Below, piece by piece: positions 1 to 3,825 of a stretch of DNA of 64,000 bases. The translations under genes were made by a program, and so were the position numbers. Each line of letters begins with the position of its first letter. Position 1 is the stretch's first letter. The stretch lies in the NCBI RefSeq assembly GCF_055900595.2, contig NZ_CM148325.1; one strand, given 5' to 3'. The notes under the pieces are model-generated. The model was not told the origin of the DNA. It was given only the letters and a program-made list of their open reading frames with translations, and ran no database searches.

Positions 1-1844
1 ATATTTTTCGCCATTTTTCCATTTTCATTTGTTTGATATATCACTCCAGGTATTCGTTGAAAAAAACTAGATAATGCATATTTGTCCGCTACATATGTAT
101 CATCCACATGATATTTCCCACCGAGCATAGTTGTAGTAACAATAAGCTTATACACACCTTTGGGTTGCCATGTTGATGGTAGTTCGAATTCTTTAATGAT
201 CACATCAAGATGATTAAGATAATGTTCAGAAATTCGATTTATTTGTTGAAAATAAGAACGCATAAATTTATTATTATGATCATGTATTAATGAGCTATCT
301 CCAACGATGTTACACACTTGCTGATAGTACTTACCATAATATATTGGTTGACCATTTGATTTTAGTTCTGTAAAAATCAAACAATCATCCAGGAGAATCA
401 CGCAATCGCACTGATAATTAGCATGAGCATCAATTGGAGAAGCTTTAATCCCCGCATCACGAACTTGTTTTATAAATTGTTGCTCATGAAATCGCCCTTT
501 ACTTGCTTGAGAAATTTTTTTGGAACCAAATAATGACATTAGAGAGCGAGTCACTGAGCTATTTGCTATTAATGCAGGCATTAAGCATAAACCGTCCATA
601 CAGGGAATAAATGGGCAATCATTAAGATCATGTGATTTTGAATTGAAGGTAAAATAATCTATCAGTTTTTTTGCTGCATCTGCTGCAATCCCCTTACGTT
701 GAAAGAATGATAACCAACTCTCACGGTTTTTTATGACCAGCCAGCGATCCAACTGTAGGGGTATAGGTTTTGTCGATGAAAATCTTTTGCTCATTTCTTC
801 TTTAGATAACTCGACTAAACATTGATAAGCGTGCACCCAATTAAATAATGATATATTCCCATATTCTTCATGAAGGTCATCAGGAGACATATTTTCCAAC
901 TCGCTTAAATGAAATGAGCTAAAAACGCCATCAGAATTTAAGTAAGATGGCATATGATCCTTTACCCAACTATTTAGATGAAAATGTTTGTTACTAAATT
1001 CATGAACTTCGCTATATAGATGTGACGCTCTCATCATTAGTCTATTTCTTGCAATCTCATAATCTCGGTATAAACAAAAACTATCAACCTCAAGAGAGTA
1101 AATGTTATTATCCAATTTTGTAAATACTGCACTACTTAGTCTGAAAAAGTCTCTTACTCTGCTTAATGAGTCAAAAACATTCCACTCATTAAGGTACCCT
1201 CCCATTGAAAGCAAGGTTTGTTTATTCACACAAGAAGTTAGTTTCAATGGCCCATGAGTCCGTAAATAAGAAAATATTCTTCCGGTGTAATTGGCTACCT
1301 CATCAAATGCCCTATCGATAACTCGAAAATATTCGATATCAGGTTCAGCATGAATATTAATATTTTCAGTAACGATAAATAATGGAAAAATCCTCTTCAT
1401 TTTTTTAGGATCATTGACCACAACCAAGGATGATAATGATGATAAAAACATCTCACAAAACATGATGAGATTAAGTATTAATGCATGTGATTTTTTTGTA
1501 TTTTTACGCCAAATACCAGCACATTTTGCAGCCGCAAAGAAAGAATTATTTATATCATGCATAATTTTACATTGACTCTCGAACTCAGAGATTAGTTCAA
1601 TGTTATCAGGAAATGAGTTTACTAGCTCATTAATACATTTTTTGAATGTATTGTTATACTCAACTTCAGTCTGAACTGAAAATCTATTATAATAGATGGA
1701 AGATATTCTCAGCACATCCAAGGCGATATCTATACTAATATCATCTCTTTTTATGTACTCACAAAAAAAAAGAACAAAACTGTTTCGGGTCGTTAGCAAG
1801 ATTACTAATTCTAGTGGTATCATAAACTTTTTCCATTTTTCCAT
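1..1844 (-). CDS. Hypothetical large protein, 3' end cut by window edge (at least 614 codons); AT-rich island gene with PD-(D/E)xK-like nuclease motif
   Basis: ATG at 1844-1842 on minus strand; I read all 614 codons down to position 3 and found no stop; in-frame stop at 1859-1857 closes the frame upstream. By-eye G+C about 30% versus about 50% in the flanking core. Translation contains FHEQQF...QCDCVILLDD...TELK around residues 450-495. Absent from the ORF track because it has no in-window stop. Confidence 0.6.
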   Translation of the reverse strand, partial: MEKWKKFMIPLELVILLTTRNSFVLFFCEYIKRDDISIDIALDVLRISSIYYNRFSVQTEVEYNNTFKKCINELVNSFPDNIELISEFESQCKIMHDINNSFFAAAKCAGIWRKNTKKSHALILNLIMFCEMFLSSLSSLVVVNDPKKMKRIFPLFIVTENINIHAEPDIEYFRVIDRAFDEVANYTGRIFSYLRTHGPLKLTSCVNKQTLLSMGGYLNEWNVFDSLSRVRDFFRLSSAVFTKLDNNIYSLEVDSFCLYRDYEIARNRLMMRASHLYSEVHEFSNKHFHLNSWVKDHMPSYLNSDGVFSSFHLSELENMSPDDLHEEYGNISLFNWVHAYQCLVELSKEEMSKRFSSTKPIPLQLDRWLVIKNRESWLSFFQRKGIAADAAKKLIDYFTFNSKSHDLNDCPFIPCMDGLCLMPALIANSSVTRSLMSLFGSKKISQASKGRFHEQQFIKQVRDAGIKASPIDAHANYQCDCVILLDDCLIFTELKSNGQPIYYGKYYQQVCNIVGDSSLIHDHNNKFMRSYFQQINRISEHYLNHLDVIIKEFELPSTWQPKGVYKLIVTTTMLGGKYHVDDTYVADKYALSSFFQRIPGVIYQTNENGKMAKN

Positions 1845-2485
1845 ACATCCTATTGTCTAAATTACTATAAAACTAGCCACTTAACTAATAATTATAAATT
1901 TCATCTTTTACACCTTGCATTTTTATAACCAATGAAATCTACAACAAGCAACTGATGGATAATCCGATATTGGTCGCATTTAATGGCATGGTAGCAAAGT
2001 TTTCATCACATACCTCCTTTGCACCAGAATAAACGCCAGAGACCTGAAATTGCGAGTACACTACAGAAATTGTACTGCCGGTCCCATCAGCATAAAACCA
2101 TAGTTACACAGGTAATCATCATTATTCACCAAGATAATAAATATTATTCGGTAGAATAGCGTTCTCAGGTGGTCAGTAAAATTGTCTTCAACAAGATGTC
2201 TGCGCATCTCGTCTGCTAGCCCTACATAACTGCTCTCGACCGAAACTATTTATTGAATGTTCACCAAGGTGGGCGTGGAGACAAAATGACGTCTTTTGAT
2301 ATTAGCTACCTGAGCCACATGGTCAAAACGTTCAAGTAGCATAGCGAAACCACCCTGCCCACGTAATGTGGACGATGCAGCTCCCAGCCAGAGCAAACTT
2401 GGGACCATCGACTACAAAATGAAGAATACTGAACTGCTTTTCTGGCAGGCCTATATACTGCACGGATATGGGTGATTTCAGACAC

Positions 2486-2510
2486 AAAAAAAGCCGCTCT
2501 TAAGCGACTC
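2486..2510 (-). terminator. Putative rho-independent terminator of leuX (hairpin with one G-U pair, then U-run on minus strand)
   Basis: Plus-strand A-run 2486-2492 followed by inverted repeat gccgct/agcgac 2493-2510, lying directly 3' of the tRNA on the minus strand. Confidence 0.45.
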
Positions 2511-2525
2511 GATTTGCATACGGTG

Positions 2526-2610
2526 TGGTGCCGAAGGCCGGACTCGAACCGGCACGTATTTCTACGGTTGATTTTGAATCAACTGCGTCTACCGATTTCG
2601 CCACTTCGGC
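2526..2610 (-). tRNA. leuX: tRNA-Leu (anticodon CAA)
   Basis: Reverse complement reads GCCGAAGTGGCGAAATCGGTAGACGCAGTTGATTCAAAATCAACCGTAGAAATACGTGCCGGTTCGAGTCCGGCCTTCGGCACCA: 85 nt with CAA in the anticodon loop, a long variable arm and an encoded CCA end. Confidence 0.92.
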
Positions 2611-2805
2611 ACTGAAGAGGTATGCGGAAAACGTTGTGGATTATACCTGTCACGCGCCACCATGCAAGCGCCAGCTTGCTCCCACCTCGCTAAGTGCTGA
2701 AATTTTCAGCATTGCATACAGCGATGTGTAACCTTTGTCACACTCCAGGCACCCCGCCCTACCATGCTCTACACTTCCCAGACAACACCAGAGAAGGACA
2801 AAAAT

Positions 2806-3825
2806 ATGTCGATGATAAAAAGCTATGCCGCAAAAGAGGCTGGCGGCAAACTGGAAGTTTATGAGTACGATCCCGGTGAACTGAAACCACAAGATGTCGA
2901 AGTGCAGGTGGATTACTGCGGGATCTGCCATTCCGATCTGTCGATGATCGACAACGAATGGGGATTTTCACAATATCCGCTGGTTGCCGGGCATGAGGTG
3001 ATTGGTCGCGTGGTGGCGCTCGGGAGCGCCGCGCAGGATAAAGGTTTGCAGGTCGGTCAGCGTGTCGGGATTGGCTGGACGGCGCGAAGCTGTGGTCACT
3101 GCGATGCCTGTATTAGCGGTAATCAGATCAACTGCGAGCAAGGTGCGGTGCCAACAATTATGAATCACGGCGGTTTTGCCGAGAAGTTGCGTGCAGACTG
3201 GCAATGGGTGATTCCACTGCCGGAAAATATCGATATCGAATCCGCCGGGCCGCTGCTGTGTGGTGGTATCACGGTCTTCAAACCACTGTTAATGCACCAT
3301 ATCACTGCCACCAGCCGCGTTGGGGTAATTGGTATTGGCGGGCTGGGGCATATCGCTATAAAACTTCTGCACGCAATGGGATGCGAGGTGACGGCCTTTA
3401 GTTCTAATCCGGCGAAAGAGCAGGAAGTGCTGGCGATGGGTGCCGATAAAGTAGTGAATAGCCGCGATCCGCAGGCACTGAAAGCACTGGCGGGGCAGTT
3501 TGATCTCATTATCAACACCGTCAACGTCAGCCTCGACTGGCAGCCTTATTTTGAGACGCTGACGTATGGCGGTAATTTCCATACAGTCGGCGCGGTCCTC
3601 ACGCCGCTGTCTGTTCCGGCCTTTACGTTAATTGCGGGCGACCGCAGCGTCTCTGGTTCAGCAACAGGTACACCTTATGAGCTGCGTAAGCTGATGCGCT
3701 TTGCCGCCCGCAGCAAGGTTGCGCCGACTACCGAACTGTTCCCGATGTCGAAAATTAACGACGCCATTCAGCATGTACGCGATGGTAAAGCGCGCTACCG
3801 CGTGGTGTTGAAAGCAGATTTTTGA
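2806..3825 (+). CDS. ahr: NADPH-dependent aldehyde reductase, Zn-dependent alcohol dehydrogenase family (339 aa)
   Basis: Translation [14 protein letters not shown]... with [16 protein letters not shown] and CGHCDAC zinc-ADH motifs. The ORF-track start at 2764 is an N-terminal over-extension; the start was placed at the MSMIKS methionine. Confidence 0.9.

Follow-up and report, generated by a model that had tools for sequence, protein, structure and literature searches.

An AT-rich gene beside leuX of Escherichia coli encodes a predicted PD-(D/E)xK nuclease with a probable role in defence and carries a homopolymer frameshift in the sequence analysed

An AT-rich open reading frame beside leuX

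The left-hand end of the 64,000-nucleotide stretch of contig NZ_CM148325.1 (NCBI RefSeq assembly GCF_055900595.2) analysed here, which we call the window, is occupied by a minus-strand open reading frame (ORF) that begins MEKWKKFMIPLELV (translation of window 1-1844) and runs from the ATG at 1844-1842 to base 1 over 614 codons without a stop. We describe the gene to which this ORF belongs, the nuclease family that it encodes and the evidence for its probable role in defence. A preliminary description of the same DNA had reported the ORF as open to the window edge, had attributed its absence from the ORF list to an off-window stop, and had pointed to its AT-richness next to core neighbours and to the lack of an integrase beside leuX; all of these points were borne out. 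The ORF is missing from the list because ORFs running off the window are left out, and the C-terminal 64 residues of the protein, as compared with the 678-residue protein of E. coli 536, fall beyond base 1. Local G+C content is 0.30-0.35 over 1-2000 vs. 0.49-0.56 over 2250-3750. Between the gene and leuX (1845-2525, 680 bp) there is no ORF of at least 60 residues and therefore no integrase, while beyond leuX lie ahr, idnK, idnD, idnO and idnT (assigned with NCBIfam), which therefore identify the E. coli leuX locus. The features of this region are as follows.

1-1844, minus strand: ORF as read in the window, 614 codons, equal to residues 1-614 of the 681-residue protein of the T9 allele described below; stop beyond base 1
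1845-2525, no strand: spacer between the gene and leuX, 680 bp, non-coding, kept in strains 536, UTI89 and SCU-124
2510-2491, within the spacer: terminator-like hairpin of leuX
2526-2610, minus strand: tRNA-Leu(CAA), i.e. leuX (ARAGORN), which anchors defence hotspot #37 (PMC12707154)

The intact gene and its distribution in E. coli

When the window positions 1-2500 were compared by megablast with 5426 complete E. coli genomes, matches of at least 99% identity were found in 335 genomes, with at least 80% query coverage in 332 of the 5426 (about 6%); this survey of occupancy shows that the gene is not conserved in most E. coli. An intact copy is present in E. coli 536 as ECP_RS23530, encoding WP_000417001.1, a protein of 678 residues labelled 'hypothetical protein', and a search by accession did not find WP_000417001 in the literature covered. 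To the left of the gene, both 536 and SCU-124 carry a 180-nucleotide gene fragment followed by a convergent gene for a phosphorothioate DNA (PT-DNA)-binding restriction endonuclease (NCBIfam NF045808, 438 bits vs. a cut-off of 180); further left are a gene for an HNH endonuclease and then truncated nanS, nanM, nanC and the fim genes. The PT-DNA restriction endonuclease and HNH genes (L006 7791-9674 and L001 13100-14400) replace the 3' part of nanS, and dnd modification genes were not seen in their vicinity; SCU-124 has the HNH gene at full length, 536 only a fragment of it. These left-hand neighbours have 45-49% G+C, with the AT-rich stretch comprising the gene and about 400 bp on either side only, which indicates a separately acquired module rather than the head of an operon. 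The gene is accessory, horizontally acquired, rare and AT-rich.

Strains 536 and UTI89 contain the end of a CP4-like island (CbtA/YeeU, DUF957 and others) between leuX and the nuclease gene, and an island is likewise found between the gene and leuX in SCU-124, for which reason SCU-124 is not the source strain of the window. In 536 and UTI89 the island is bounded by a degenerate repeat of the 3' end of leuX, TGGTGC-GAAGGCCGGACTCGAAC, with one base deleted (L001 about 17520-17545 and L007, corresponding to window 2526-2550). Sequence shared with the window runs up to this repeat and the CP4-like island starts immediately past it; hence the nuclease gene is on the other side of the attachment site and not within the integrated islands. 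We considered and rejected the idea that the gene is cargo of a P4-type island integrated at leuX, given that 1845-2525 holds no integrase and that the gene is situated beyond the island-end repeat in 536 and UTI89. A copy with 99% identity to the E. coli gene, found on a contig of 4.2 kb (SFGN01000178.1) that bears the label 'MAG: Lachnospiraceae bacterium' (MAG, metagenome-assembled genome), is most likely E. coli contamination of the metagenome bin.

A family of long proteins with a PD-(D/E)xK signature

A phmmer search over 1.84 billion cluster representatives recovered 226 relatives (clusters at 50% identity), mostly of 600-700 residues, with residues 320-650 best conserved (numbering of the 536 protein here and below, unless the window is named). 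Across 111 aligned full-length members, which share 14-55% identity, P408, G447, D477, E490 and K492 are invariant, with D403, D406, E451 (97%), Q531, R534 and D584 conserved in at least 90% of members. This conserved E...D...E-x-K pattern constitutes a PD-(D/E)xK signature, and it falls on the residues flagged in the preliminary description, which had placed an acidic/E-x-K motif near residues 450-495; we find it at residues 452-496 of the window ORF, extending from E454 to K495, in bases 485-360, which encode EQQFIKQVRDAGIKASPIDAHANYQCDCVILLDDCLIFTELK, and the window copy carries all the catalytic residues. The domains that we recognize within the window are listed below.

36-503, minus strand: PD-(D/E)xK (NERD-type) nuclease core; candidate catalytic residues E at 485-483, D at 407-405, E at 368-366, K at 362-360, Q at 245-243 and D at 86-84
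516-758, minus strand: winged-helix-like segment with the near-invariant motif S-x-D-L-x-D-C-P-F-I (D403, D406, P408)
759-1763, minus strand: all-helical N-terminal domain, about residues 25-360, poorly conserved, without a Pfam or PDB match

Evidence from databases of known domains came mainly from the relatives. Scanned one by one against Pfam, 9 of the 111 members matched NERD at E<=1e-3, and 29 did so at E<=0.1; weak matches to Card1_endonuc, Mrr_cat, Hjc and MTES_1575, all of which are PD-(D/E)xK families, were also obtained. The family profile matched its block G-x-x-F-E...E-C-D...E-C-K to the motif of the Can2 nuclease (E 0.038), and relatives carry the UniProt name 'NERD domain-containing protein'. 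A sequence search of PDB gave nothing significant. A profile built without the enterobacterial members retrieved 5 proteins, profile A2 retrieved E. coli variants only, and a profile search of genome contigs with a 10-sequence alignment found 8 loci, none of them in Pseudomonas. One database entry of 733 residues (P0072, ENA), whose C-terminus is YchF-type (PF06071) and follows residues 25-666 or so of the present protein, probably arose as a chimera during assembly. We found no functional study of this family of 600-700 residues in the literature searched.

The structure predicted by AlphaFold2 with the 111-member alignment (pLDDT 92.7, pTM 0.91) consists of helices up to about residue 360 and places an alpha/beta core at residues 445-600. 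Two features of the PD-(D/E)xK superfamily were found here, namely a restriction-endonuclease-like alpha/beta core and the conserved acidic and lysine signature on helix 1 and strands 2-3, and both fold and catalytic signature fit NERD (Pfam PF08378) within the PD-(D/E)xK clan CL0236; the difference is that the described domains leave about 450 residues uncovered. With conservation across the family, the Pfam matches of relatives and the predicted structure all in agreement, the nuclease fold proposed in the preliminary description is upheld and the PD-(D/E)xK assignment is solid. Residues 362-418 are modelled as helix-strand-helix-helix-strand-strand, a unit that may be a winged helix if the model is followed. 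The C-terminal domain (about 620-668, outside the window) comprises two helices and a beta-hairpin, modelled at 620-666, a small alpha/beta unit in which the motif G-x-I-T-I-D-K-F-I resembles the 'LDKxL' helix of S4, with Pfam S4 detected in none of the 111 members. The N-terminal helical domain is the least conserved part of the family, and we infer it to be the sensor or regulatory part. Foldseek against AFDB50 returned full-length matches (TM 0.7-0.97), many of them 'NERD domain-containing protein' entries of 600-700 residues, in Bacillales, Clostridia, Listeria, Streptococcus, Legionella, Agrobacterium, Paracidovorax and Planctomycetes, a range that takes in Firmicutes and Proteobacteria.

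Comparison with Upx, ZwsA and DS-26

The best structural match is Upx (SeUpx, PDB 9wuf), which is said to be the single-protein defence of Gao et al. 2020 and whose nuclease domain is structurally similar to that of the leuX-side protein. The likeness does not extend to sequence: PADLOC-DB 2.0 contains an Upx model, yet there was no PADLOC Upx match at E<=1, and the family profile misses 9wuf at E<=10. The architectures also differ, Upx having three domains that include a beta-rich N-domain (an atypical second nuclease or sensor) as opposed to the all-helical N-terminus of the 678-residue leuX-side protein; moreover, the nuclease core of Upx sits at the extreme C-terminus, whereas in the leuX-side protein it is followed by about 80 residues with an extra C-domain. 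Upx is a protein of 1272 residues in which D1161, E1176 and K1178 of the C-terminal PD-(D/E)xK core are needed for defence (PMC13099982; bioRxiv 10.64898/2026.04.30.721860), and its reported activators are phage proteins, one study naming the terminase and another one gp16 (bioRxiv 10.64898/2026.04.30.721860; PMC13099982).

These comparisons bear on one alternative to a sensor-nuclease, namely that the protein acts alone as a restriction-type endonuclease, with modification dependence (type IV-like) as the most plausible form, and would read foreign DNA directly through its N-terminal and winged-helix-like parts, without being an effector triggered by infection. In the 111 members, Pfam detected no known domain for reading modified bases or recognizing DNA (SRA, EVE/YTH, SBD, Mrr_N etc.); the poor conservation of the N-terminal domain suggests arms-race sensing instead; and Upx, the closest protein in structure, is reportedly triggered by a phage protein and not by a DNA site (bioRxiv 10.64898/2026.04.30.721860). 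We therefore regard a restriction-type enzyme as unlikely, albeit with some real chance of being right.

ZwsA (Zowangsin) of P. aeruginosa is a stand-alone NERD RNA endonuclease of 716 residues that acts against single-stranded RNA (ssRNA) phages, is found in defence islands, and has the architecture VHS + DUF647 + NERD + S4 with catalytic residues E535, D567, E580 and K582 (bioRxiv 10.64898/2026.04.06.716636). Compared by its description, it is similar to the leuX-side family in length and layout (a helical N-terminus, NERD, and a small C-domain), and the D-to-E spacing is 13 in both; on the other hand, ZwsA has 134 residues past the catalytic lysine vs. 170-230 in the leuX-side family, its residue numbering is matched by 0 of the 111 members, and, as mentioned above, Pfam S4 is missing from all of them. 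One could imagine that the long-NERD family represents unrecognized, widespread single-gene immunity that senses infection with its helical N-terminal domain and may cut RNA as ZwsA does, in which case the E. coli gene would counter ssRNA coliphages such as MS2 and Qbeta, a scenario that we consider improbable. The present evidence does not support the link to RNA phages through ZwsA. Such a link would be worth more than a plain defence role; to our knowledge, few E. coli defences against ssRNA coliphages have been described.

DS-26 ('NERD', WP_054626965.1) is a 532-residue E. coli single-gene defence with remote similarity to Upx, validated in work with DefensePredictor (PMC13092281). Like the leuX-side gene, it is an accessory single gene of E. 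coli with a NERD-like PD-(D/E)xK domain, and hhalign showed the series D-x-P-F ... G-x-x-x-E ... D ... (D/E)-x-K to be collinear with the leuX-side family. Compared over the first 399 of its 532 residues, DS-26 was nevertheless rejected as a family member (hhalign E 0.15, probability 0.4%; hmmsearch -6.5 bits; no BLASTP match), and we regard it as a different family. Neither a peptide nor the accession of the leuX-side protein was found in the DefensePredictor supplements, several tables of which were covered in part.

Genomic contexts of the relatives

The leuX site is hotspot #37 in a map of E. coli defence islands and the most occupied one, with defence genes in 97% of isolates (PMC12707154). 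For the family at large, we inspected 14 informative contexts, of which 7 had firm defence neighbours within a few kb, 3 had softer ones and 4 had none; no control set accompanies these counts. The firm and softer associations are the following.

E. coli: PT-DNA restriction endonuclease and HNH endonuclease; firm
L003: type I restriction-modification system and Cap4 nuclease; firm
L008: Gabija GajA/GajB in Tn7-like cargo; firm
L009: integrase island with KAP NTPase, Mrr and PIN; firm
L017, Enterobacter: type I restriction-modification system and ThsB TIR gene; firm
L018, Paenibacillus: AbiGi/AbiGii; firm
L016, Xenorhabdus: Wadjet JetC/JetD; firm
L021: PDC-M68B; softer
L022: HigBA-like pair; softer
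L025: YobI-type ATPase and HNH gene; softer

Five plasmids, from Bacillus, Priestia, Exiguobacterium and Fusobacterium, carry a family member, and no phage genome encoding one was found. There was no conserved partner gene, as the upstream ORFs of 324 residues (L003), 325 residues (L009) and 176 residues (L013) are unrelated; with no neighbour conserved across the contexts, the unit is a single gene. A second alternative, a non-defence nuclease serving an element or the cell (in toxin/addiction, competition between elements, or repair and recombination) with its island site being incidental, draws on the contexts that are plasmids, regions flanked by insertion sequences or toxin loci without recognized defence genes, and on the occurrence of NERD domains (PF08378) in non-defence proteins as well. 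However, no conserved antitoxin or immunity partner was seen among the contexts examined, the gene is sporadic (6% of E. coli) and often frameshifted, and half of the contexts adjoin bona fide defence systems. This alternative is accordingly very unlikely in our judgment.

In Enterobacter genomosp. O, the gene immediately upstream of the family member (L017 8536-9588) is a full-length TIR gene of the ThsB1 type (PADLOC E 4e-157). None of the ORFs examined over 3.3-13.5 kb of this locus encodes a ThsA-like effector, the sequence covered there extending some 1.9 kb past the family member on its downstream side. The ThsB gene there is either an orphan or one half of a local TIR-nuclease pairing. 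We rejected the family as a ThsA-like effector of Thoeris, as ThsB is directly upstream only in this Enterobacter locus and is absent from the close relative L022 and from all other contexts. In Pantoea (L004 11708-11730), the homologue is situated less than 2 kb from a tRNA gene whose 3' end equals that of leuX over the 23 nucleotides searched, and it adjoins an Hcp-Ntox44 toxin pair; this suggests that another genus uses the same tRNA-anchored variable region.

A homopolymer frameshift at the 5' end

The window copy departs from its relatives at the 5' end. The N-terminus of the relatives reads M-(E)-K-x-Y-D-x-x-R-I (Izhakiella, Xenorhabdus, Pectobacterium and Pantoea; MEKVYDTTRI in the 536 protein), which corresponds to the frame of the ATGs at 1848 and 1836. 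ATG 1844 is thus not the family start, and the first 27 residues of the ORF that it opens are non-homologous to the family. The relevant features are these.

1834-1848, minus strand: native start region; ATG 1848-1846 and ATG 1836-1834 give (MYGK)MEKVYDTTRI, and ATG 1844-1842 is in another frame
1759-1761, minus strand: TGA closing the native frame after 29 codons
1763-1771, minus strand: homopolymer T9 (A9 on the plus strand), a frameshift of +1 against the common T8 allele; T7 alleles exist as well

In the window the native frame reads MYGKMEKVYDTTRISNLANDPKQFCSFFL and then ends at the TGA at 1761-1759 because the run at 1763-1771 is T9 and not T8, and the long ORF persists because the out-of-frame ATG 1844 stays open up to the T run. 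An 8-nucleotide unit, ATGGAAAA, is tandemly duplicated at 1844-1829, where the start codon lies, and ATGs in two frames are the result; in SCU-124 the unit occurs once. The ATGGAAAA duplication and the T run jointly enable frameshifted alleles to retain a long ORF.

The run has 9 Ts in the window, 8 in 536 and 7 in UTI89. At least 206 of the 335 carriers have an identical T8 79-mer and 52 an identical T7 78-mer (with the UTI89 allele as query), the T7 strains among the matches listed being ExPEC XM, NU14, SF-173, APEC O18 and O18; the T9 80-mer of the window is identical in only one of the 335 complete genomes, that of SCU-124. The T run acts as a hotspot of mutation, with repeated disruption of the gene's 5' end. 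We rejected reversible phase variation of the run, as all five listed T7 carriers and UTI89 are extra-intestinal or avian pathogenic strains; T7 looks like a single inherited frameshift.

For the T9 copy, one reading is that the gene is a decaying pseudogene in this genome, or that T9 is a homopolymer sequencing error; the 614-codon ORF would then be longer than the product actually made. This is suggested by: 1) the halting of the native frame at 1761-1759; 2) the rarity of the exact T9 80-mer; 3) the poor spacing (3 nucleotides) of the AGGA Shine-Dalgarno sequence from ATG 1844; 4) the annotation of the SCU-124 T9 allele by the NCBI Prokaryotic Genome Annotation Pipeline (PGAP) from an internal Met, to give 674 residues; 5) the annotation of T7 alleles, which begins only at Met92 in UTI89 and covers nothing over the tract in the five listed strains. 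Against it, the frame past the T run is intact, with 587 codons free of any further stop that are 99% identical to intact alleles, the catalytic residues are all kept, and T9-type proteins (P0066-P0071) recur in a few independent assemblies, P0068 and P0069 being of the window's allele type. We put this reading at slightly below an even chance. As judged from the sequence, the rare T9 copy has its first 24-27 residues replaced, or is forced to use an internal start, and could be weakened or inactive; it may be a genuine but impaired variant or reflect a homopolymer sequencing error.

Proposed function

Taking the fold, the invariant signature, the single-gene organization, the patchy distribution, the foreign composition and the recurrent placement in defence islands together, we surmise that the gene probably encodes a stand-alone anti-phage or anti-mobile-element sensor-nuclease. 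The defence role itself is argued from guilt by association, i.e. from recurrent defence-gene neighbours counted without a control set. In the intact protein of 678 residues, a variable helical N-domain (about 1-360) is connected through a winged-helix-like linker (about 360-440) to a NERD-type PD-(D/E)xK nuclease core, predicted to be metal-dependent (about 445-600, with E451, D477, E490-x-K492, Q531 and D584), and the C-domain. We postulate that the N-terminal domain would hold the nuclease inactive until a cue of infection is detected, whereupon the triggered nuclease would cut phage or cellular nucleic acid, be it DNA or RNA. Precedents for single-protein PD-(D/E)xK defence are Upx (PMC13099982; bioRxiv 10.64898/2026.04.30.721860), ZwsA (bioRxiv 10.64898/2026.04.06.716636) and DS-26 (PMC13092281), and the leuX-side protein joins well-populated sensor-nuclease fusions without being a new kind of system.

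Several observations weigh against a defence role. Half of the contexts (7 of 14) have no firm defence neighbour, and 4 of the 14 are of a housekeeping, toxin or plasmid nature, as exemplified by the Izhakiella copy between entD and sugar genes, the Pantoea copy by flagellar genes, and the copies on two plasmids of Bacillales. No Pfam threshold is reached by the E. coli protein, which gives no match even at E<=10; nothing significant was found in NCBIfam or PHROGs; and the best PADLOC match, PDC-M29B (E 0.001 over 50 residues), is not significant and too weak to use. The window allele is frameshifted and so are the T7 alleles in 52 of 335 carriers; the gene is therefore often lost. The function that we ascribe to the N-terminal domain is a guess. 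The preliminary description had offered two readings of the locus, an acquired single-gene defence nuclease or the first gene of an island continuing leftward; the former holds as to the single-gene unit and the foreign composition, with the defence role probable as above, and the latter gives way to a separate module.

Should the gene be a true defence gene, it would add one more stand-alone sensor-nuclease to the pan-immune system of E. coli, at the species' most occupied hotspot. The family numbers more than 200 clusters (50% identity) across several phyla and is recognized by neither PADLOC-DB 2.0 (2023) nor NCBIfam, and its approximately 360 confidently modelled residues without an assigned role might point to a new mode of infection sensing. 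The T7, T8 and T9 alleles would serve as natural on/off variants for weighing cost and benefit in uropathogenic lineages, with 536 being intact and UTI89 frameshifted.

Lastly, a minus-strand mini-ORF of 8 codons (2018-1980; MKTLLPCH, then a stop) lies in the spacer 135 nucleotides upstream of the nuclease gene, with a canonical AGGAGG 6 nucleotides ahead of it, and could be a leader peptide or a chance occurrence.

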